A stretch of DNA of 32,747 bases from an uncultured Oscillospiraceae bacterium (GCA_964474475.1 CAYYTD010000002.1:1-32747), one strand, 5' to 3'. Positions 21,321 through 32,747 are shown, numbered from the stretch's first letter. Made by a program: numbers and translations. The notes: generated from the sequence alone by a model not told the origin.

Positions 21321-22799
21321 TCAATCGGTAATTTCGCCAATTATTTCTTTGCCGTCGGCAAATGCGGCAAATACGTTTTGCAATCCTTTGCCGCCCACCT
21401 GTTCAAAGTGCAGCGCCATCGTTTGCGGAGATGCAATGGTGTAGCAGGCGGCGGCGTAGTAATTTTTCAACGCGCGGAAAAACTTTTCCTTGCCCATCGT
21501 TTCGTAAAGGGTATTAAACATCAAGCTGCCCTTCACGTAGGTCAAAATCACGTATTCGCTGTCGTTTTTGTAATCGGCAAGGCACTTGTAGGAGGTGTCG
21601 GCACGATCGTAGTAGCGGTTTAGTACGTCAACGTAGGTGGTGTAAGTTTTGGTTTTGGCACGGATGCCGTCGGCAAGGGGTTTTTCGCCCCGTTCGTCCA
21701 AGTATTGCATGGTCAAAAATTCCGCCAAACCTTCGTCCATCCAGGCATCGTTAAATTGGTCGTTGCCAACAATTCCGTAAAACCACTGGTGCGCTGTTTC
21801 GTGAATTACTGCCTCCCTGTACGAAGAGCTGCCGCTCGTCACCATCGATAGGCACGGGTATTCCATTCCGCCGTAACAGAATTCCGTTTCGCACACGGAG
21901 TACTGGGCGTAAGGGTATTCGCTTATCTTGGACGAAAAGTACTTCAAGGTGTCGCAGGCAAGTTTCAAAGTGTTTTCCGCATCCTTGTCGGCGTAGTAAT
22001 AGTAGTTAACTTGCACTCCGTCGGCATCGGTGGTCAGTTTCTTAAAGTTTTTCGATGCCACCAGCGCAAAATCTCTCACGGCACTTGCCGAAAACTTTAG
22101 CGTGTCGACAGTGTTGTCCGACGTAGCCTCCACCAAAACGCCGCTCGATGCCGCCACGTAGCCCTTTGGCACAATCATGGTAACGTCGTAGTTGGCAACT
22201 TCGCTCACAAAGGGATCTCCCACGTTGCAGTAGGGCGTGCACACGTAGTTGCCGCCGTCCACGTCGCACAAAACGGGGTAAAAGTTGCCCAGGTTAATGG
22301 TTGCATCGGTGTAGCCAAGTCGGTGCTTTACGTTGGCAATAACAATTTCGCAGTCCATTTGCACCGTTACGCTTTCTCCGCCAAACAATTCTTTGCCCAG
22401 CGGCACGGAAAGTATGTCGTTGTCGGTGCCTTCAATTACAAAGGCAACGGGGGTTCCGTCCACCTTTACTTGGTCAAAGGTTATCTTGCCAAAGCTGTCG
22501 CCGTTGGGGTAAGCGGCGCTTTTGTACACGTTGGGTACAACGCTCGTTTGTGCATCCTCTCGGTATTGATTTGCGTATATGTGAAATTTCACTTCCGTCA
22601 CGGCGTTTTGCGCGCGGTTGGTTAGGCGGACCGTTTCGGCAAGGCTCAGCGTGTGGCTTGACTCGTCCCAGCTTGCCACAAGGTTGTAGTCGTCGGCGTT
22701 TGCGGCGGCGGCACGTTGCGGGTCGGTTGCACAGCCGAGCAAGGTCGATGCGCACAGGGCAAGTAGGGCAATTAGCAAAAGGGCAGTTAATCTTTTCAT
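21321..22799 (-). CDS. M1-family zinc metallopeptidase, lipoprotein (492 aa)
   Basis: HETAH-X18-E gluzincin motif and a GGMEYP variant of GAMEN. Signal MKRLTALLLIALLALCASTLLGC (lipobox LLGC) starts at 22799 with a GGAG RBS. Confidence 0.88.
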   Translation of the reverse strand: MKRLTALLLIALLALCASTLLGCATDPQRAAAANADDYNLVASWDESSHTLSLAETVRLTNRAQNAVTEVKFHIYANQYREDAQTSVVPNVYKSAAYPNGDSFGKITFDQVKVDGTPVAFVIEGTDNDILSVPLGKELFGGESVTVQMDCEIVIANVKHRLGYTDATINLGNFYPVLCDVDGGNYVCTPYCNVGDPFVSEVANYDVTMIVPKGYVAASSGVLVEATSDNTVDTLKFSASAVRDFALVASKNFKKLTTDADGVQVNYYYYADKDAENTLKLACDTLKYFSSKISEYPYAQYSVCETEFCYGGMEYPCLSMVTSGSSSYREAVIHETAHQWFYGIVGNDQFNDAWMDEGLAEFLTMQYLDERGEKPLADGIRAKTKTYTTYVDVLNRYYDRADTSYKCLADYKNDSEYVILTYVKGSLMFNTLYETMGKEKFFRALKNYYAAACYTIASPQTMALHFEQVGGKGLQNVFAAFADGKEIIGEITD

Positions 22800-22884
22800 T
22801 GCAATCTCCAATGGCGATGTATTCTGTGCCATTGTATGATTTGCACCTTGCATTTATTCGTGTCCACGGCAAAAATGGGGCAGT

Positions 22885-22913
22885 AAGATACAGCAACCAA
22901 TGGTATTTGTCAA
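22885..22913 (-). promoter_or_regulatory. Candidate promoter of the peptidase gene
   Basis: Minus-strand TTGACA at 22913-22908, 17-nt spacer, TATCTT at 22890-22885. A T-rich UP-like tract lies upstream. Confidence 0.5.
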
Positions 22914-22984
22914 TAGCAAAATGCAAAAAAAAATAAAAAATCCCCTCGTTCGCGTAAAAAACTTGAATTATGCTGAAAAAATAG

Positions 22985-23013
22985 TTGACGATTCGCCCGC
23001 GGTTTGCTAAAAT
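22985..23013 (+). promoter_or_regulatory. Promoter of the ABC importer operon
   Basis: TTGACG at 22985-22990, 17-nt spacer, extended -10 TGcTAAAAT at 23005-23013. A ~300-nt leader follows. Confidence 0.65.
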
Positions 23014-23310
23014 GACACCATTAACAACAGAGAATAGTTATCTCGCCAAGCAATTGGCTCCGAAGGTTCTCGTGGGTTGTATCGATTAGCTAGTAACTTA
23101 ATAGGTTAGTTTTTTGGTAAGCTCGGAATGGCTAAAGGCGAGAGGTATACTATTTTTCGGTTGAATAGTATATGTTCGTTGTGCGGTTTCGGGTTTTTTG
23201 TTGTTCAAATCACAAAACTAACTATACAAAATGATTGACGTTGTGCGGTTTGCAAGGCAGGCTGTGCAATTCAATATAAATTTGACGATTCTATTTATGG
23301 AGGAAAAACA

Positions 23311-26300
23311 ATGAAAAAGACAAAATTGATGCTTGTCATTATTTTGGCTTTGATAATGGTTGCTTCGCTCACGCTCGTGGCATGCGATCCGTCAACGGAT
23401 CCTTGTCAAGACGGCAAGCACGTAGATATCAACGGAGACGGAATCTGCGATATCTGTCAAGCCAAAGTAGAAGCTAAATGCACTCACGCCGACGCAAACC
23501 ATGACGGCGTTTGCGACAAGTGCAGCGAACCCGGTCTCACCGTTGAACACACTTGGGCAAACGGCGTATGCTTCGGCTGCGGCAAAACCTGCGTTCACGA
23601 ATGGGAAAGCGGCGTTTGCAAAGTTTGCGCTCTTGTTTGTGCACACACCTTTGGCGCTACTGACGGCGTTTGCACGATTTGCGGCACGAAGGACCCCAAC
23701 TACGATCCCGAATGTTATCCTCACGTCATCGTAAACGGCGTTTGCACCAACTGCGGTAAAGGTTGCAACCACGTGTGGGTTAACGGAGTTTGCTCCGTGT
23801 GCAGCTTCCAATGCGATCACGAATGGGCAAACGGTGTTTGCACCACTTGTAGCGCAGCTTGTGCTCACGACTGGACGGACAGACAGGGCGAATGCAGCAT
23901 CTGCCACAGCACCTGCACGGCTCACCAATTCAAGTTTGGCCTTTGCCTTACTTGCGGTGTAAAGGATGCCAACCCGTCCGAAACGTGGACCTACAACCAG
24001 GCAACCTCTCAATTGCCCACCGGTTGGAACGAACTCAACTACCAAGCTAATACTGCAACGTTGGTACTCGACTACACAACGGGCGGATTCTTCACCTTCG
24101 ACTACAACGCAACCAAAGACGGTTACGTAATGGTTCCCGCCATGGCTAAAGACTTCCCCACCAACGTTACTGCGGAATACGCAAGCAAGTGGGGCATCAA
24201 ACCCGAAGACGACGGCTCCTACTCTCCTTACATTTGGAAGCTCGAACTCCGTCACGACCTTCGTTTCGACAACGGCGACCGCATCACCACGGCAGACTTT
24301 ATCGAAACTGCAAAGCGTTTGCTCGCTCCCGAAGCTGCCAACTACCGTGCTAACAGCTTGTACAGCGGTTCTATGGTTATCGTAGGTGCCGAAAACTACG
24401 CAAAGCAAGGCTCCGTTGGTTACGAGCCCATCGAATGGGATGACGACGGAAAATACAACGGCAAATTGTGGGCAGAACTCTCCGAAGAAGAACAAAAGAA
24501 CATATTCTTCTCTCTCGAAGGTTCCACTGTTGCTCAATGGGCTAAAAAGAATTATTCTTCGTACGCAGTATCTTACGTTTTGTACGCACTGTTTGGGGCG
24601 GAAAGTGAAGCTGCAGTCAAGGCTCTTGATGAAAAATCCGCTTACGAAATTTTGAACGACCCCGCCATGAAAGCAACTTACGAAACGTTGCTTGGCGCAT
24701 GGCAAACCGATCCGGGCGAAGAATTCGACTTCTTCTCTGAAAAGATCACCTGGTCCGAATTCTCTTGGGAAAACGTAGGTTTGGTTGCTTTGGATGAATA
24801 TAACTTGTTGTTCGTTCTCAAAAAGCCCCTTGAAGGTTTCTACCTTCACTATGCAATGGGTCTTCCCCTCGTTCACGTAGAAACTTACGACGCTTGCGCC
24901 AAGATCGAAGGTGGCGTGTACACCAACACTTACGGCACCAGCGTAGATACCTTCGTAGGTTACGGTCCTTACCGTCTTACCTACTTCGTTGCCGACAACT
25001 CCATTCAATTCACCAAGAATGAATTCTGGTACGGCTACAACGACGAAGTAAACAAGTCTTTGTATCAAACTACCGGCGTTTCCATCAAGAAGATTACCGG
25101 CGACACTCGTTTGCAAGCCTTCTTGAAGGGTGAAACAGACAGCTACGGTCTTGAAGCAAAGGATATGGAAGATTACCAACAAAGTAAGTATAACTACTTT
25201 ACCGAAGGTGACTCCACTTGGTTCGTTGCTCTCAACCCCAGCACTGACGGCCTCAGGTCGGCAGAAGAACTTGCCAATGCAAACAAACCGGAAAAAACCG
25301 TCGTCAAGCGCATCCTTGCCATTAAGGAATTCCGTCAAGCATTGTCCTTTGCAATTGACCGTGCAAACTACGCTTTGACGCTCGACCCGATGAGCAGCAC
25401 TGCTTTGGCACTTTACGGCAACATGATCATTGCCGACCCCGAACTCGGTACCGCTTACCGCACTACGGAACAAGCCAAGGACACCATCCTTAACTTCTGG
25501 GGATTGTCCAACTGGGATACTCTCGTTGACGAAGACGGCGAACGTCTGTACGCCACCAAGGAAGAAGCTATTGCATCCATCAAGGGTTACGACCCCGCCG
25601 GTGCAAAAACCTTGTTCGACAAAGCTTACGACGAAGCAGTAAAACGCGAATTCATCACCGCAGAAATGATCGCATCCGGCAAATGGGTTGTTCAAATTAT
25701 TATCGGCAAACCTGCTGAACACGATTACTACAACAACGGTTACAACTACCTCAACCAAGTTTGGGCCGAAGCAATCAAGGGCACCAAGTTGGAAGGCCAC
25801 GTAGAGTTCAAGCAGTCTCAAGTTCTTGGCGACAGCTTTGCGGAATTCTTGCAAAGAAACGAAGTTGACGTGTTGTTCGGCGTTGGTTGGACGGGATCGA
25901 CTCTTGACCCGTACGGCCTCATCGAAGCTTACGTAAGCCCCAACTACCAATACGACCCCGCTTGGGATACCACCGGCACCACTGCCGACATCACCCACGA
26001 AGGCAAGGTTCTCCGTGCATCGGTATATGATTGGTACTTGGCTCTTGCAGGCGAAAAGATTACTACGGTTGTAGTAGGCGCCGACGGCAAGGAAACGGAA
26101 GAAACGGTGGAAATTACTGCAGGTCCCTCTGCAGAAATGGAACTCCGCGTCAGCATCCTTGCAACCATCGAAAACGCAGTTCTTCAACAGTACGACATGA
26201 TTCCCGTTGGTAACGAAGCATCGGCATCCTTGAAGGGTATGAGAATCAAGTTCTACACCGAAGAATACGTGTTCGGCGTTGGTCGTGGCGGCATCAAGTA

Positions 26301-26394
26301 CATGACTTACGACGAAACAATCGGTAGCGACCAAGCTTGGGCTGAATACGTAAAAGCTCAAGGCGGCACGCTTAATTACAAGGTAAGTAACTAA
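23311..26394 (+). CDS. Family-5 (Opp/Dpp/Nik-type) ABC substrate-binding lipoprotein, 1027 aa, with an N-terminal Cys/His-rich repeat region
   Basis: GGAGG RBS. Signal MKKTKLMLVIILALIMVASLTLVAC (lipobox). SBP_bac_5-like core (WKLELRHDLRFDNGDRITTADFIETAKRLL). Residues 25-220 hold ~30 Cys in ten repeats. Confidence 0.88.
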   Translation: MKKTKLMLVIILALIMVASLTLVACDPSTDPCQDGKHVDINGDGICDICQAKVEAKCTHADANHDGVCDKCSEPGLTVEHTWANGVCFGCGKTCVHEWESGVCKVCALVCAHTFGATDGVCTICGTKDPNYDPECYPHVIVNGVCTNCGKGCNHVWVNGVCSVCSFQCDHEWANGVCTTCSAACAHDWTDRQGECSICHSTCTAHQFKFGLCLTCGVKDANPSETWTYNQATSQLPTGWNELNYQANTATLVLDYTTGGFFTFDYNATKDGYVMVPAMAKDFPTNVTAEYASKWGIKPEDDGSYSPYIWKLELRHDLRFDNGDRITTADFIETAKRLLAPEAANYRANSLYSGSMVIVGAENYAKQGSVGYEPIEWDDDGKYNGKLWAELSEEEQKNIFFSLEGSTVAQWAKKNYSSYAVSYVLYALFGAESEAAVKALDEKSAYEILNDPAMKATYETLLGAWQTDPGEEFDFFSEKITWSEFSWENVGLVALDEYNLLFVLKKPLEGFYLHYAMGLPLVHVETYDACAKIEGGVYTNTYGTSVDTFVGYGPYRLTYFVADNSIQFTKNEFWYGYNDEVNKSLYQTTGVSIKKITGDTRLQAFLKGETDSYGLEAKDMEDYQQSKYNYFTEGDSTWFVALNPSTDGLRSAEELANANKPEKTVVKRILAIKEFRQALSFAIDRANYALTLDPMSSTALALYGNMIIADPELGTAYRTTEQAKDTILNFWGLSNWDTLVDEDGERLYATKEEAIASIKGYDPAGAKTLFDKAYDEAVKREFITAEMIASGKWVVQIIIGKPAEHDYYNNGYNYLNQVWAEAIKGTKLEGHVEFKQSQVLGDSFAEFLQRNEVDVLFGVGWTGSTLDPYGLIEAYVSPNYQYDPAWDTTGTTADITHEGKVLRASVYDWYLALAGEKITTVVVGADGKETEETVEITAGPSAEMELRVSILATIENAVLQQYDMIPVGNEASASLKGMRIKFYTEEYVFGVGRGGIKYMTYDETIGSDQAWAEYVKAQGGTLNYKVSN

Positions 26395-26407
26395 TTTGCA
26401 TTCACTT

Positions 26408-26434
26408 TGTGCGGCAGGTTGTGTGCCTGCCGTG
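26408..26434 (+). other. Intercistronic stem-loop 1
   Basis: GTGCGGCAGG pairs with CCTGCCGTGC (10 bp including two G-U), 7-nt loop, no T run. Confidence 0.5.
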
Positions 26435-26477
26435 CAAGTAGCAAAGTAAACTTGCCAACAACTTAACAGTTAATGCT

Positions 26478-26518
26478 AATGTGAGCATAGGGACGAATTT
26501 TGTCCCTATGCCTACATT
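26478..26518 (+). other. Intercistronic stem-loop 2
   Basis: Perfect 10-bp core GCATAGGGAC/GTCCCTATGC (26485-26511), extendable to ~17 bp. No T run. Confidence 0.6.
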
Positions 26519-26611
26519 ACGCTTAACGACTTTTCAATTTTTAATAGTATTTTGTCAAGTTCGGACGCGTTTCCGAATTTGGCTAAGTACTACAACAAGG
26601 AGAATACAGCC

Positions 26612-27901
26612 ATGTATTTACTAAAATACATTCTAAAGCGCGTTTTGCTGATGCTGTTCGTGTTCATCGTTATTTCAACGATGTGCTTCGTGCTGATCAA
26701 AATGCTGCCCAACAGGCCCGCCAAGGAATTTGGCGCAGACCAAGCAATTATTGAGGCAAAGCGCGAAATGATGGGTTACGACCGAACCTACATGGAACAA
26801 TACTTCTTTTACATTTTCGGTAGAGTCGGTTACACCTACGATGTGCTGGACGAGCACGGCAACAAAATTCAAGAGACGGATACTTCCGGCAATTTGAAGT
26901 GGTTGCAACAAGACAAGCTGGACGAAAACGGCGACGTGATGTATTGGCAAAATGAAAAGGGCGAATACCTTGATGCCAGCGGAAACGTGACCACTCGCCC
27001 CGGACACTACGTTGCTCTTCAAGAAGACGTGTTGGACGAAAACGGCAACAAAATACCCGTTTACAAGCAAAAAACCGTCTACAACAAAGCCGACCTGCCC
27101 GAAAGCATTGCTGCTAACAGCAAGCTTTACACTCGCAAAAGCTACGGCGGCATCATTCGCGGCAGCTTTGGTCCCAGCGAAAAGTTCCAAGTAGGCGTTG
27201 ACGTAGGTAAAATATTTGCCGACCGTCTTCCTTACACGATGGCAGTAAACCTGTACTCCATTTTGTTGTCCATTCCTTTGGGTTTGGGACTTGGCATTAT
27301 TGCCGCTCTCAAAAAGAACAAATGGCAGGACCACGTAATTAGCATTGGCGTAATGATTTTCGTTTCCGTGCCCAGCTTTATTTACGGATTCATCGTTAAG
27401 TACCTGTTCTACTACAAACTTGGTTGGACGACCTCCATTATGGACACTACTCAAGGCCCGTGGAGCTGGACGGCACTCAAAACCATGTACGCGGCAGTGC
27501 TGTGCTTGTCCTTTGGTAGTATTGCAGGCTTTGCCCGTTACACTCGTGCGGAGCTGACGGAAGTGCTTACAAGCGAATTTATGTTGCTTGCACGTACCAA
27601 GGGCTTAACCCGTGGACAAGCTACCTTGCGACACGCCTTGCGTAATGCAATGGTGCCCATCTTCCCCATGATTTTGGGCGAGTTCGTCAGCATTTTGAGC
27701 GGCTCACTTATCATTGAGGACATGTACTCCATTCCGGGTGTTGGAGCGCTGTACGTTACGGCAGTTCAATCCAACCCGCCGGATACGAACTTATTTATGC
27801 TCATCGGCATGTTCTACACGCTTATCGGCCTTGCCGCTAACATCGTGGTAGACATCAGCTACGGTATCATCGACCCGCGTATCAGAATGGGGGCAAGATA
27901 A
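26612..27901 (+). CDS. ABC importer permease (OppB/DppB-type) with an enlarged extracytoplasmic loop
   Basis: AAGGAG RBS at 26597-26602. N-terminus MYLLKYILKRVLLMLFVFIV is typical of OppB. The C-terminal BPD_transp_1 region ends IDPRIR. About 150 extra aa lie between TM1 and TM2. Confidence 0.88.
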   Translation: MYLLKYILKRVLLMLFVFIVISTMCFVLIKMLPNRPAKEFGADQAIIEAKREMMGYDRTYMEQYFFYIFGRVGYTYDVLDEHGNKIQETDTSGNLKWLQQDKLDENGDVMYWQNEKGEYLDASGNVTTRPGHYVALQEDVLDENGNKIPVYKQKTVYNKADLPESIAANSKLYTRKSYGGIIRGSFGPSEKFQVGVDVGKIFADRLPYTMAVNLYSILLSIPLGLGLGIIAALKKNKWQDHVISIGVMIFVSVPSFIYGFIVKYLFYYKLGWTTSIMDTTQGPWSWTALKTMYAAVLCLSFGSIAGFARYTRAELTEVLTSEFMLLARTKGLTRGQATLRHALRNAMVPIFPMILGEFVSILSGSLIIEDMYSIPGVGALYVTAVQSNPPDTNLFMLIGMFYTLIGLAANIVVDISYGIIDPRIRMGAR

Positions 27902-27903
27902 TT

Positions 27904-29544
27904 ATGAATAACAATCAATTTGAATTATACAACGATATACCGCAAGATAAATTTGCCTTTGCCAAGTCGGCAGGTGACAGGCACGATCAAAAGCTTGACA
28001 CCAAGCCGGTAGGTTACTTCCGTGATGCGTTTTCGCGCTTTGCCAAGAACAAGGCGTCCGTAGTTGCGGCAATAGTAATTTTGATTTTGATACTGTACGC
28101 CATCGTTGGTCCTTTCTTTATCGAGGACAGCTACGTAGACGCTTACGCAACGGACAAATACATTGCAATGTACCAAAACTTGCTTCCTCGCTTGAACATT
28201 TTTGAGGGTACAGGCTTTTGGGATGGTTCGGAAGTGAAAGAAGTATCCTCCGCAACTTACTGGAAGTACAAAGGAATAGCGCAAGAAACGGGGCTAAACC
28301 CCATCCAAAAGGTTATTTCTATGGAAGTGGTCGGCGACGAAATAGTCGGACAGTCCATCATGTACAAGCTGCGTGTGGATACCTACTACACCCTTAAAAC
28401 GTTCGAAGTTACATTTGCCAGCCTTGAGGAATTTCGCGAATTGCAACGTTGGCAGGACGAAAACGGCATTCAAGTAATTTTGCCCACCGTTGACCGCACC
28501 AAGAGCAAAATCACATCCGACATGAGCGTTTGGTACGAGTGCGACAGGCAAGGTGTGCCCGCGTTTGACGAAAACGGAGAGCTTATCCCTGCGTACGTTC
28601 AAACGGGAACGGACAAGTACGACAGCACCATGCGTATTGCCGGTGACCCCGGTATTAAAGCGTTGGAGCGTGTTGCAGGCATCACCGACGAAGAAGAACG
28701 CCAAGCAGCGTTAAATGCCGACGAAGACTGGCTCCATCGTTACCGTTACGCCTACCGTGGCTCGTCCGGTGCAGGCGACGGCGCACTCAACTATGTAGTT
28801 CGTGTAAACGCTTACAATTATTTTAGGTATCAATACGGCTTTAAACCCGGCTTTGCATTTGGAACCAACAGCAAGGGCTACGACATCTTTACCCGTCTTG
28901 CAAGCGGTGCGCGTTTCAGCTTTATTTTGGCTATTTGCGTATCCGTCATCAACCTTACCATTGGCGCAATTTACGGTGCAATCGAGGGTTACTACGGCGG
29001 CGCTGCGGATATGATTATGGAACGTGTTTCGGACATTTTGAGCGGCGTTCCGAGTACGGTAGTGACCATATTATTCCAGCTACACCTAGCGGACAAGGTA
29101 GGTGTGGTGGGGGCACTGGTGTACTCCTTTGTGCTAACCGGCTGGATAGGCATGGCATCTAGCGTGCGTATGCAGTTCTACCGATACAAAAATCAGGAAT
29201 ACGTTTTGGCGGCGCGCACTTTGGGCGCAAACGACTGGCGTATCATTTGGAAACACATCTTCCCCAACTCGTTGGGCACGCTAATTACCGGCAGTGTGTT
29301 CGTCATTCCGGGCGTAATGCTCAGCGAAACGTCACTGTCCTACTTGGGCATTCTCAATTTGGACAGCCCCACGCGCGCATCCATCGGTGCAATGCTTTCG
29401 GCAGGCAAGGACAACATGTCTACCTATCCTCACGTTGTGTTCTTCCCCGCACTGTTCATTGGCTTGTTGATGATTTGCTTCAACCTGTTCGGCAACGGAC
29501 TTCGCGATGCCTTTAACCCCGCTTTGCGCGGCACGGAGGAGTGA
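27904..29544 (+). CDS. ABC importer permease (OppC/DppC-type) with a ~230-aa extracytoplasmic insertion
   Basis: OppC_N-like FSRFAKNKASVVAAIVILILILYAIVGPFF. The C-terminal permease core ends GNGLRDAFNP. 546 aa versus a usual ~300. Confidence 0.88.
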   Translation: MNNNQFELYNDIPQDKFAFAKSAGDRHDQKLDTKPVGYFRDAFSRFAKNKASVVAAIVILILILYAIVGPFFIEDSYVDAYATDKYIAMYQNLLPRLNIFEGTGFWDGSEVKEVSSATYWKYKGIAQETGLNPIQKVISMEVVGDEIVGQSIMYKLRVDTYYTLKTFEVTFASLEEFRELQRWQDENGIQVILPTVDRTKSKITSDMSVWYECDRQGVPAFDENGELIPAYVQTGTDKYDSTMRIAGDPGIKALERVAGITDEEERQAALNADEDWLHRYRYAYRGSSGAGDGALNYVVRVNAYNYFRYQYGFKPGFAFGTNSKGYDIFTRLASGARFSFILAICVSVINLTIGAIYGAIEGYYGGAADMIMERVSDILSGVPSTVVTILFQLHLADKVGVVGALVYSFVLTGWIGMASSVRMQFYRYKNQEYVLAARTLGANDWRIIWKHIFPNSLGTLITGSVFVIPGVMLSETSLSYLGILNLDSPTRASIGAMLSAGKDNMSTYPHVVFFPALFIGLLMICFNLFGNGLRDAFNPALRGTEE

Positions 29545-29545
29545 T

Positions 29546-31702
29546 ATGGAAAAGAAACTTGAAGTAAAAAACTTAATCATTTCCTTCCGCACACAGGGCG
29601 GCAAGGTGCAGGCTGTTCGCAACATCAATTTTGACCTGTACAAGGGCGAAACCTTGGCAATAGTGGGCGAATCGGGTAGCGGCAAATCCGTTACCAACCG
29701 TGCCGTTATCGGCATTTTGGCAGGCAACGCCATCGTAGAAGGTGGCGAAATCATCTACGACGGACAAGATTTGCTCAAAATTTCCGAAGACGAATTTCAC
29801 AAAATTCGCGGCGACAAAATCGCCATGATCTTCCAAGACCCTATGTCCAGCCTCAACCCCATCATGAAGGTGGGCAAGCAGCTTACCGAAGCAATGCTTT
29901 TGAAGAGCAGCTCGGGCAGAAAAAACGCTCGCCGCAACTTTAACGGCAAGCTCAAGTTGCTCAACGCCACCATGAACGAAGTGGCAGGCGGCAACGAAGA
30001 ACAAATTCAGTACAACGTGGAAAGCTGCAAAACTTTTGATAGTTTTTGCATTAACAGCACCAAGTTGGAGAGCGCCTACAACGAAATTCGCCGTAGAACG
30101 GTAGAATTGGAGTTGGACGTTCAAGACGTACTGTTTTTGATTTCCAAAAATCAAAAAATCGAAGTTGGCAAAACGCTCAAACACGTTCTTGCCGCGCTGC
30201 CCACAACCCTTCACCCCGACATCGTGGTTATGGACGAACGCTTGACGGCGGACATGGCAGTCCTCAAGGAAGAACTTGCCGTCAAGGAAGCCGAAACGCT
30301 GTCCGAAAAGGCTCAAAAAGCGCTTGAAGACATCGACGAAATTCTCAACGCCGCAATCAGCCGTCCAGGCCCCAACTACTTCACATTGGGATACTACATG
30401 ATGAAGAATCCCGAGGCGCAGTTGGACGACATGCCCCTTGACGAGTTGACTACCATGACGCGTGAATTCCTCGATGAAGACTTCATGCTCAAGTTTATTG
30501 AGGAAGGCGCCAAGGCAATGGCACTTTCTCACGAAAAGAGTATCGCAGCCAAAGTTGCGTTGTTGCCCGAACTTGACAAGCTGGAAGAATTGTTCTCCGC
30601 CGAAGAGCTGAACAAAAAACAATGCCTTGCGGCAATCAAAGCCGTTTCGGCCAAAGTGAAGGGAGCAATCAACAATTTGCTCGTCCACAAAAACAGTACG
30701 GAATTCGTGTTTGAATCCAGCTTGACGGACGCAGTGGATAAGTACTTCTTCGGCATTGTAAATAACCCCAAAGAGATTGCTCGTTTCGAAAAACAAAGCG
30801 AAAAGTACCAAAAGGCGCTGGATAAGGGCAAAACCCCCGATTACAAAATTATTCCTGCCGCTTTGGTCGACTTGGAACTTGCCAAGGAAAATATTCGCAA
30901 GGTAATTCGCGGCTTGGCAGATAACTATGCTAACCAAATTGCCAACGCCGATCAATTCGATGCAAAGGCGCAAATGGTGGATCTCATCGACTATCTCAAG
31001 GAACAAGCTTCCGCCGTGGTGCAAAAGATCACGCCCAAAATGGCCAAAGCCAAGGCGCTCAACTTGCTCAAAGAGGTTGGTATTCCCGAGCCTGCAATTC
31101 GTTACAATCAATATCCCTTTGAGTTTTCCGGCGGTATGCGCCAACGTATAGTTATTGCAATTGCGCTTGCTGCCAACCCGGATATCCTCATTTGCGACGA
31201 ACCGACGACTGCGTTGGACGTTACCATTCAATCTCAAATTCTTGAATTGATCAACCGCATCAAGGCGGAACGTAACTTGTCCGTAATATTCATCACGCAC
31301 GACTTGGGTGTCGTTGCAAACATGGCGGACAGAATTGCCGTTATGTACGCAGGTAAAATTGTCGAGTACGGCACGGCGGACGATGTATTCTACGATCCTC
31401 GCCATCCTTACACTTGGGCTTTGCTCAGTTCCATGCCCGACCTTGACACCAAGGAAAAGCTGGAAGCAATTCCCGGAACTCCGCCCAACATGATTTATCC
31501 GCCGCAAGGCGACGCATTTGCCGCTCGTAACAAGTACGCGCTGGAAATCGACTTTGAACAGCAACCGCCAATGTTCCAGGTGTCCGATACTCACTACGCT
31601 GCAACTTGGTTGTTGCACCCCAACGCTCCTCACGTAGACCCGCCGCGTATCGTAACGGATCGCATCGAGCGTATGTCCAAAAAGGAACAGGAGGTAAAGT
31701 AA
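29546..31702 (+). CDS. ABC importer ATPase (OppD-type) with a ~375-aa insertion inside the NBD
   Basis: GGAGGA RBS. Walker [10 protein letters not shown]-loop [11 protein letters not shown], then ~375 helical residues before signature FSGGMRQR. Walker [10 protein letters not shown]-loop ITHD, and a C-terminal oligo_HPY-like tail. Confidence 0.9.
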
Positions 31703-31703
31703 A

Positions 31704-32747
31704 ATGGCAGATAACAAACAAGTTTTGCTGTCGGTGCAGCACCTCGAACAGTTTTTCAAAATGGGCAGGCAACAGCTCAAAGCCGTCAACGACGTAAGCT
31801 TTGACATTTACAAGGGCGAAGTTTTTGGTTTGGTTGGCGAATCGGGCTGCGGCAAAACGACCACCGGACGTTCTATTATTCGTTTATACGACATAACGGG
31901 CGGCTCGGTGTACTTTGACGGACAGCGTATTTGCGCGGGCATCCGCACCTACAAACAAGCCGTTGCCGATGCGAAAGCAAAGGCACAGGCGCAATTGGAG
32001 GTGCTGAACGCGCAACCGCAGTCGGCCGAACGTGACGCCGAGATGGCTGCCATTCGCGCGGAGTTGGAAGCGGAAATCAAAAAGCAAACGGAAGAAATCC
32101 GCAAGGCGAAGGACGATCACAAGAATTGCAACAAAAAGTACGCCAGGGCGCAAATGCAAGCCGTCAAGGACGAGTATTTGCCTCGGTTGGATGCAATGCC
32201 TGAAAGCGAAGAAAAGGAAAAGCTCCAGGCGGAATACAAGTCGGCGTTGAAACTTGCGTCGAAAGATAGGATCATGAACAAAATCCAAATGATTTTCCAG
32301 GATCCCATTGCATCGCTCAATCCCCGTATGACCGTTCGTGAAATTATTGCCGAAGGTCTTATCGTTAGAGGAATCAAAGACAAGCAGTACATTGACGAGC
32401 AAGTATTTAAGGTTTTGGATTTGGTCGGTTTGGTTCCGGAACACGCAAACCGTTATCCGCACGAGTTTTCGGGCGGTCAGCGTCAGCGTATCGGCATTGC
32501 ACGCGCAATCGTGCTCAACCCAGAGTTGATCATTGCCGACGAGCCCATTTCGGCATTGGACGTTTCCATTCAAGCGCAAGTAATTAACCTGCTCAACGAT
32601 TTGCGTCACGACTTGGGACTCACCATCATGTTCATCGCGCACGACTTGTCCGTCGTCAAGTACTTCTCGGACAGAATTGCCGTAATGTACTTTGGTAAGA
32701 TAGTGGAGTTGACCACCAGTGACGAACTGTTCAGTCATCCGTTGCAT
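31704..32747 (+). CDS. ABC importer ATPase (OppF-type), 3'-truncated by the window, with a ~100-aa coiled-coil insertion
   Basis: Not in the supplied track because there is no stop in the window. AGGAGG RBS at 31689-31694 and ATG at 31704; the frame is open for 348 codons. Walker [45 protein letters not shown]. Confidence 0.9.

Follow-up and report, generated by a model that had tools for sequence, protein, structure and literature searches.

The window analyzed here is a 32,747-nucleotide (nt) stretch of DNA from an uncultured Oscillospiraceae bacterium, and it constitutes the whole of contig C2 in an assembly of 1.35 Mb (84% complete). Across positions 23311–32747, five consecutive genes on the plus strand encode an importer of the Opp/Dpp type: a lipoprotein that serves as substrate-binding protein (SBP; 1027 amino acids (aa), 23311–26394), an OppB-type permease (429 aa, 26612–27901), an OppC-type permease (546 aa, 27904–29544), an OppD-type ATPase (718 aa, 29546–31702) and an OppF-type ATPase, of which the first 348 of ~420 aa are encoded (31704–32747) before the window ends. 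The SBP was recognized by Pfam SBP_bac_5 and a lipobox, OppB by BPD_transp_1_N and BPD_transp_1, OppC by OppC_N and BPD_transp_1, OppD by ABC_tran and oligo_HPY, and OppF by ABC_tran. All motifs examined are intact, namely the lipobox, both EAA-type coupling helices and, in each ATPase, Walker A, Q-loop, signature, Walker B and H-loop. Every NCBIfam name assigned (Opp3B/Opp3C-like permeases, OppD/OppF-like ATPases) scored under its equivalog cut-off.

A preliminary description of this DNA had called each subunit oversized, and the sizes hold. Ordinary Opp loci recovered in the same search, from Bacilli, Actinobacteria and others, mostly have an OppB of 304–360 aa, an OppC of 297–450 aa, an OppD of 331–382 aa and an OppF of 292–390 aa. 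Using the Pfam cores, alignment to solved Opp/Dpp structures, and motif positions, we could delimit insertions in all five subunits. Those of the SBP, OppB and OppC lie outside the membrane and those of OppD and OppF inside, so the expansion on both faces that had been suspected is real, and it is conserved. The description had also placed the locus in a walled, Firmicute-like organism. In line with this, the genome carries two penicillin-binding-protein transpeptidase genes, from which we take the organism to be walled.

OppD contains a module of ~363 aa. Its open reading frame extends back to an ATG at 29507, whereas all homologues begin at one particular 10-residue sequence, which puts the start at 29546. 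M. tuberculosis OppD aligns to residues 3–130 and 494–686 of the protein, leaving residues 131–493 (29936–31024) as a gap. With the Q-loop at residue 96 and the signature at 528, these motifs are 432 residues apart instead of the normal 60. The intervening module is acidic (net charge about –16). An AlphaFold2 (AF2) model built from a 40-sequence alignment had a mean predicted local distance difference test score (pLDDT) of 88.6 and a predicted TM-score (pTM) of 0.73, and its core superposes on E. coli OppD with a TM-score of 0.89. The insert is predicted to be entirely helical, with pLDDT mostly between 80 and 97 and helices of up to 52 residues (109–147, 151–200, 298–349 and 389–426). Conservation within the module falls chiefly on Phe, Leu, Met, Tyr and Val, and no nucleotide-binding or catalytic motif is present.

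The only full-length relatives of this module that searches revealed are other OppD proteins. A Foldseek comparison of the whole model with the PDB recovered the canonical core and nothing matching the insert, while an insert-only profile run against PDB sequences found just a designed coiled coil, aligned to the first ~150 residues (E = 0.002). Neither this insert nor any of the others gave a credible match to Pfam or NCBIfam at E ≤ 1. Against 1.84 billion representative proteins, phmmer with the OppD insert returned only 135 matches. All of the full-length ones are OppD proteins of ~700–760 aa with the module at about residues 128–500, and the remainder are gene fragments; no free-standing relative, or relative in another context, appeared among these representatives. 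One protein (P0165), an OppD of 571 aa, carries a shorter version of the module, ~220 aa, at the same site. An intein or mobile insertion was considered and rejected, as the module is all-helical, lies in frame in every case and lacks homologues of its own elsewhere. Two unusual records were also seen. In one member of the family (G060:C62:2637-3734), the open frame that matches the OppD insert runs to 1120 aa and may be an OppD–OppF fusion. In P0177, an SBP_bac_5 fragment is joined to the C-terminal half of a long OppD, and this protein is probably chimeric or misassembled.

The preliminary description had reported OppF as incomplete and bearing an insertion of ~100 aa, and both points stand. 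Walker A (residue 45) and the Q-loop (residue 198) are ~153 residues apart, compared to the usual 55. The insert spans approximately residues 77–186 (~110 aa, 31932–32261), between Walker A and the Q-loop, and is Ala/Lys/Glu-rich and coiled-coil-like. The missing end of the protein was found on contig C66, the reverse complement of which opens with the last 34 OppF residues followed by a DUF3899 gene, all within the first ~600 bases. The gap between C2 and C66 measures ~120 nt, so that ~40 OppF residues fall inside it. Full-length OppF is therefore ~420 aa, and the operon has a sixth gene. Consistent with this size, the two loci of close relatives (L084 and L085) encode OppF proteins of 419 and 452 aa, with the oligo_HPY domain present, and the window OppF is 78–79% identical to both across residues 1–348. 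In other long-Opp loci, the segment from Walker A to the Q-loop ranges from ~55 to 187 residues. DUF3899, a small membrane protein of ~129 aa, is encoded directly after OppF in 11 of 19 long-Opp loci (at 13536-13925 in L084 and 13465-13854 in L085), versus 0 of 64 ordinary Opp loci searched by tblastn. The DUF3899 protein may thus be a sixth component of the long-form importer.

In OppC, the OppC_N domain (PF12911) occupies residues 38–79 and BPD_transp_1 residues 357–542, with the coupling motif ARTLGA. E. coli OppC aligns to residues 27–79 and 314–540. Between them, residues 80–313 (28141–28842) replace ~12 residues in the region between transmembrane helices 1 and 2 (TM1–TM2). This ectodomain of ~234 aa is conserved end to end across 17 loci of more distant relatives, with the motifs WQxETGIQVIYP, ANxWY and RVxYYNYYxY. 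In the AF2 model, residues 91–230 form a predicted mixed alpha/beta module with pLDDT mostly 78–89. Comparing the whole model with the PDB by Foldseek gave membrane-core matches only (TM helices 2–6), and a profile of the ectodomain matched none of the PDB sequences. The cytoplasmic N-terminus of OppC (residues 1–38, 27904–28020) carries a further motif conserved in the clade, IPxEKFxF...HDKKLETKP, in which F17, F19 and D28 are invariant. The first part of it has no counterpart in E. coli OppC, and the motif could be a docking site for an ATPase insert.

OppB, for which Opp3B was the best NCBIfam match, has BPD_transp_1_N (PF19300) at residues 3–70, BPD_transp_1 (PF00528) at residues 224–425 and the coupling motif ARTKGL at residue 330. 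An alternative TTG start at 26552 would yield 449 aa; the alignment of homologues, however, begins at the ATG that gives 429 aa. The extracellular insert (~110 aa, 26819–27151), delimited by the Pfam cores, covers approximately residues 70–180 of the TM1–TM2 region. It directly follows the BPD_transp_1_N segment that holds the scoop-motif region, and it carries repeats of the type VLDE[HN]GNKI.

The SBP consists of a signal peptide with lipobox LVAC (residues 1–25), a Cys-rich segment (residues 25–215) and a core from about residue 216 to 1027. SBP_bac_5 (PF00496) matched residues 474–879 at 98.2 bits, versus a cut-off of 32.4, with a second stretch at ~308–358. The core, ~810 residues, is ~200 residues longer than pneumococcal AmiA, which together with AliC is the best solved relative, albeit a weak match. 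No Walker A was found when the SBP was scanned for an ecto-ATPase motif like that of M. hominis. The N-terminal segment, evident from its composition (23383–23955), is made up of about ten mini-repeats, roughly C-x-H-x(3-8)-G-V-C-x-x-C, and contains 16% Cys. These repeats match no family in Pfam or NCBIfam, and they probably form a rigid stalk linking the lipid anchor to the core. They occur in 29 of the 82 genomes of the family, scattered across many different large proteins, and sit within the orthologous SBP in G011 only. The frames that carry the mini-repeat module in these 29 genomes are 700–2200 aa long, many of them lying in G011, G069, G071 and G078, and a single genome can hold as many as 11 matches.

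Orthologously placed SBPs tell a similar story of exchange. The SBP at L084:3824-6898 (1024 aa) has a Big_2 domain in place of the Cys-rich repeats, whereas that at L085:4699-7290 (863 aa) has a single Cys unit at its N-terminus. Both are just 25–28% identical to the window SBP, and the SBPs of the 17 distant loci align only from about residue 210 onward. By sequence comparison, the Cys-rich N-terminus is a promiscuous, shuffled module and a recent addition. The receptor as a whole either has been replaced or is diversifying much faster than the motor, OppD and OppF being 72–79% identical among the same relatives.

To see how widely each insert occurs, we turned to related genomes, as the preliminary description had suggested. 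More than 120 full-length OppD clusters (715–740 aa, 69–75% identical to the window OppD) were found in metagenomes, and the same operon was found at 17 loci in a species-representative genome collection. These metagenome-assembled genomes (MAGs) are labeled Faecousia, Oscillospiraceae, Ca. Enterenecus, Clostridia or Eubacteriales, with one labeled Bacilli. Subunit sizes at the 17 loci are 795–901 aa (SBP), 317–393 aa (OppB), 507–577 aa (OppC), 707–756 aa (OppD) and 358–496 aa (OppF), and for both OppD and OppC the alignment to the window proteins covers the full length, inserts included. OppD of L084 and L085 is 72–74% identical to the window OppD. The possibility that the long genes are artefacts of assembly or frameshifting, which had been raised at the outset, is rejected, because >120 protein clusters, and dozens of genomes, contain full-length frames. 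Nor do the inserts carry any Pfam or NCBIfam annotation. Long-form Opp is a real, conserved, lineage-wide form of the importer in small-genome gut Clostridia. Full-text literature searches for such inserts in Opp systems found no description, so the long-form importer is apparently undescribed.

The inserts differ in their phylogenetic reach. The OppD module is present in 46 of 82 genomes of the organism's own family (10 of 18 genera), in 36 of 301 genomes of the order (24 of 150 genera, ~13 families) and in 4 of 399 at the level of class. The frame that contains it is always 695–797 aa unless cut at a contig end, the single 1120-aa frame of G060 apart, and the module segment keeps a length of 354–389 aa across order-level divergence. 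The OppC ectodomain was found in 27 of the 301 order genomes, each of which also has the OppD module on the same contig. The OppF insert occurs in 44 of the 82 family genomes and shares its contigs with the OppD insert. The OppB insert, by contrast, is restricted to three sister genomes of the 82 (G011, G020 and G027), always beside a long OppD, and is missing from the 17 distant relatives.

These patterns do not support a coordinated expansion of all five subunits, as the preliminary description had it. Joint inheritance is limited to the OppC ectodomain, the OppD module and the large SBP core. The OppF insert varies from ~45 to >170 aa beyond the canonical spacer, the OppB insert is confined to the three sisters, and relatives have exchanged the Cys-rich N-terminus of the SBP for other modules. 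The expansion is instead a layered, stepwise accretion. Its oldest layer is the co-inherited OppC ectodomain, OppD module and ~800-aa SBP core; the OppF hairpin is a family-level layer; and the OppB loop insert and Cys-rich SBP stalk are recent. The enlargement of all five subunits is thus where this process has ended up, the SBPs of close relatives having been swapped while OppF remains 78–79% identical.

A second Opp-like operon in the same genome, on contig C49 (L086:664-8529), bears on this point. Its SBP (904 aa), OppB (471 aa, with a TM1–TM2 loop of ~200 aa) and OppC (390 aa) are enlarged, whereas its ATPases are free of inserts and still have the Cys-rich [4Fe-4S] motif. Extracellular inflation therefore appears to be a general habit of the organism. 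The ATPase inserts, in contrast, are specific to the long form.

The five-component organization is that of the Gram-positive Opp/Ami permeases (B. subtilis OppABCDF, S. pneumoniae AmiACDEF and L. lactis Opp; TC 3.A.1.5, PepT). Shared features are a lipoprotein SBP with SBP_bac_5, OppB and OppC with EAA-type coupling helices, and two oligo_HPY ATPases. The window OppD core is 58–67% identical to OppD of Bacilli, and its oligo_HPY domain at the C-terminus has no Cys; OppF of the relatives has one. The Fe–S cysteines are likewise missing from Opp/Ami-type OppD of Lysinibacillus, Streptococcus and Enterococcus. Loss of the Fe–S ligands was accordingly rejected as a hallmark of the long form, since it is also seen in ordinary OppD of Bacilli, and the missing ligands are inherited rather than a new feature. 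The closest core match and the Cys-less tail, both as in Bacilli, suggest that the long form derives from a Gram-positive Opp/Ami permease. With its cluster C SBP, two distinct permeases and two motif-intact ATPases, the system has the makeup of a type I importer of the PepT/Opp-Dpp group. It lacks the [4Fe-4S] ligands, which does not exclude it from PepT, as OppD of Bacilli Opp/Ami systems lacks them too. What sets it apart from Opp/Ami are the 363-aa OppD module, the 234-aa OppC ectodomain, the ~800-aa SBP core with its variable stalk, the OppF hairpin, the OppB loop insert in this species, and the frequent presence of DUF3899 after OppF.

The cores of the window proteins also superpose on the solved importers, E. 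coli DppBCDF/OppBCDF and M. tuberculosis OppABCD/DppABCD (PDB 8z1v-8z21, 8j5q-t, 8wd9). In the Dpp complex, the binding protein docks on the TM1–TM2 periplasmic regions, which also seal the cavity, DppB pairs with DppD and DppC with DppF, and four C-terminal cysteines of E. coli DppD and DppF bind a [4Fe-4S] cluster (PMC12136057). The additions to OppB and OppC sit in these same TM1–TM2 regions, which dock the SBP in solved systems. The [4Fe-4S] clusters that solved systems carry on their ATPase C-terminal cysteines are missing in the window OppD. We know of no solved Opp/Dpp system with an insert at either nucleotide-binding domain (NBD) site or with an OppC ectodomain.

The site of the OppD module recalls SMC/Rad50 proteins, in which a helical insertion likewise exits the ABC head after the Q-loop and re-enters before the signature. 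The analogy is topological only: we found no homology of the insert to SMC/Rad50. The window OppD scored 21.5 bits against Pfam SMC_N over residues 36–601, across the split head, which at a cut-off of 40 gives no membership; this sub-threshold match reflects an insert at the position of the SMC/Rad50 coiled coil. The first ~150 residues of the insert are coiled-coil in character, as in SMC/Rad50, but the prediction for the whole is a module of several helices, not one long antiparallel coiled coil. Unlike SMC/Rad50, moreover, the window OppD is a transporter subunit with an oligo_HPY domain.

Long Opp ATPases are also known from Mollicutes, and the preliminary description had pointed there. 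The lead was correct as regards length. True Mollicutes OppD genes (TGA read as Trp) encode 561–630 aa and score above the cut-off of NF043079, and the Mollicutes and clostridial proteins alike are of Firmicute type, lengthened by Lys/Glu-rich helical sequence. It is the Mollicutes models, too, that give the best NCBIfam matches to the window ATPases: NF043079 (MMSYN1_0167) for OppD and NF043078 (MMSYN1_0168) for the partial OppF. Yet the scores, 470.7 versus a cut-off of 740 bits and 326.1 versus 800 bits, fall far short. In Mollicutes OppD, Walker A lies at ~42 and the Q-loop at 315–380, with the signature 60 residues later; because this last spacing is normal, their Lys/Glu/Asn-rich insert must precede the Q-loop. 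The clostridial OppD insert follows it. The Mollicutes site, between Walker A and the Q-loop, is instead that of the window OppF insert. OppC remains of normal length in the Mollicutes model (307 positions).

Isolated inserts gave no match to NF043079 or NF043078 at E ≤ 1. When the clostridial OppD, clostridial OppF and Mollicutes inserts were compared by hhalign, probabilities were 0.2–1.2% for every pair (0.2–0.3% for homology to the Mollicutes inserts). On the strength of these scans, homology of the inserts to those of Mollicutes, or to each other, was rejected, and the Mollicutes lead survives as an analogy. Given the different insert sites and the lack of detectable insert homology, long Opp ATPases arose independently in Mollicutes and Clostridia. 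Separately, four genomes of the class Bacilli have OppD frames of 583–625 aa with no in-frame TGA, presumably using the standard code (G1001:C9:10123-11838, G1025:C18:3288-5000, G912:C42:8422-10167 and G895:C25:8187-9908). They match the whole Mollicutes OppD model just under its cut-off, suggesting that the Mollicutes-type insert extends beyond code-4 organisms.

Upstream of the operon, on the minus strand and divergent from the SBP gene, lies a gene for an M1-family aminopeptidase lipoprotein (21321–22853; Pfam Peptidase_M1). Its zinc site (HETAH...E), GGMEY motif and lipobox (LLGC) are all present. The same gene stands at the same position in L084 and L085 (54–56% identity), but it is missing from the 17 more distant long-Opp loci, so this neighbor is a feature of close relatives only. 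In L084 and L085, the long-Opp operon is directly upstream of the S10 ribosomal-protein operon. The intergenic region between the peptidase and SBP genes spans 457 nt (22854–23310). Rfam (gathering threshold) and tRNA scans of the window gave no match, and hence no known riboswitch or leader.

We interpret the locus as an operon for a long-form derivative of the Gram-positive Opp/Ami importer, one with a taller outer docking platform and with structural or regulatory arms on its ATPases. From the sequence comparisons, we would put the probability of this reading at roughly 0.7. The system very probably imports oligopeptides by the usual cycle, in which the SBP docks, ATP drives NBD closure, and the peptide is released into the OppB/OppC cavity; family membership and the neighboring M1 aminopeptidase both speak for this substrate. 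In close relatives, import would probably cooperate with that surface aminopeptidase, and the M1 and S10 surroundings fit a housekeeping role in peptide foraging.

On the outer face, the OppC ectodomain, joined here by the OppB loop, would make up a raised platform on which the oversized SBP docks or is caged, and the interchangeable N-terminus of that protein (Cys-repeats, a Big_2 domain or next to nothing) would be a stalk. By analogy with the TM1–TM2 regions of Dpp, which dock the SBP, and because the OppC ectodomain always accompanies the 800-aa SBP core, we give this part about even odds. On the inner face, the helical subdomain of an ABC ATPase grips the coupling helix of the permease and rotates upon ATP binding. 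The OppD module would extend from this subdomain, the one gripping the OppB coupling helix, and the OppF hairpin from the beta-subdomain of the partner NBD. More tentatively, with the odds somewhat against it, we suggest that the two act as structural or regulatory arms that tune NBD closure, gate ATPase activity or tether a cytoplasmic partner.

Several observations weigh against this interpretation. Confidence in the OppC model is only moderate (mean pLDDT 69.9 for the whole protein). Hydrophobic-core conservation in the OppD module would fit purely structural elaboration equally well, and insert sequences diverge quickly, the OppD insert retaining ~30% identity across genera. As regards substrate, the SBP has diverged very far, matching AmiA at E = 9e-9. 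Finally, ~40% of good-quality family genomes lack the operon, which must therefore be non-essential.

The main rival holds that the inserts are neutral elaborations, loop expansions tolerated through drift or constructive neutral evolution. It accounts well for the additions to OppB, OppF and the SBP N-terminus, whose length and presence vary widely among relatives, and the inflated extracellular loops of the C49 system suggest just such a general tendency of the lineage. Inserts diverge faster than cores (mean top-residue frequency 0.49, versus 0.82–0.88), and the residues they conserve are mainly hydrophobic. The OppD module is harder to explain in this way. Its length and confidently predicted fold are kept across order-level divergence, and it is co-inherited with the OppC ectodomain. 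Apart from fragments at contig ends, no long-form locus was seen to have a degraded or truncated module, although the ~220-aa form of P0165 does exist. Moreover, all genomes of the family measure merely 1.0–2.4 Mb, and >2 kb of useless coding sequence should have been lost from them. We therefore regard neutral elaboration as an unlikely account of the system.

A bolder proposal, and one that we consider improbable, is that the system represents a distinct architectural class. In such a class, the OppD and OppF arms would assemble under the NBD dimer as a gate or adaptor (for trans-inhibition or peptide hand-over), the OppC ectodomain would serve as receptor for an extra SBP lobe, and DUF3899 would be a sixth subunit. 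If true, events on both membrane faces would be coupled as in no solved importer.

Alternatively, the system might have been repurposed as a receptor or importer of signaling or cell-wall peptides, or as a sensor whose arms relay occupancy to a partner. One could cite the SBP, extremely divergent and exchanged between close relatives whose ATPases are 72–79% identical; a large folded cytoplasmic module that, lacking enzymatic motifs, resembles an adaptor; the association with DUF3899; and the presence of a second, ordinary Opp-like system in the same genome. But both ATPase sites are catalytically intact by motif, the surface aminopeptidase is kept next door in close relatives, and no regulator, kinase or signaling gene is linked to the operon in any locus inspected. 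Repurposing thus seems quite remote. That the long ATPases are the Mollicutes OppD and OppF, through shared ancestry or horizontal transfer of the expansion, is scarcely credible on the comparisons above, and for OppD it is refuted.

Derivation from an Opp/Ami permease, with a platform outside and arms inside, thus remains the reading we prefer. Opp-type importers are central to nitrogen nutrition and peptide signaling in Firmicutes. To our knowledge, their mechanism has been solved only recently, and only for compact proteobacterial and mycobacterial systems. The long form shows that the importer scaffold can accommodate, and perhaps put to use, large additions at positions where SMC/Rad50-type proteins have theirs, pairing a ~360-residue module in the OppD helical subdomain with a ~230-residue ectodomain on the opposite permease. 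For an importer, this cytoplasmic position is an unusual one. Any practical payoff hinges on finding the role of the inserts. For the lineage itself, uncultured and with small genomes, peptide uptake probably matters for its ecology in the gut.

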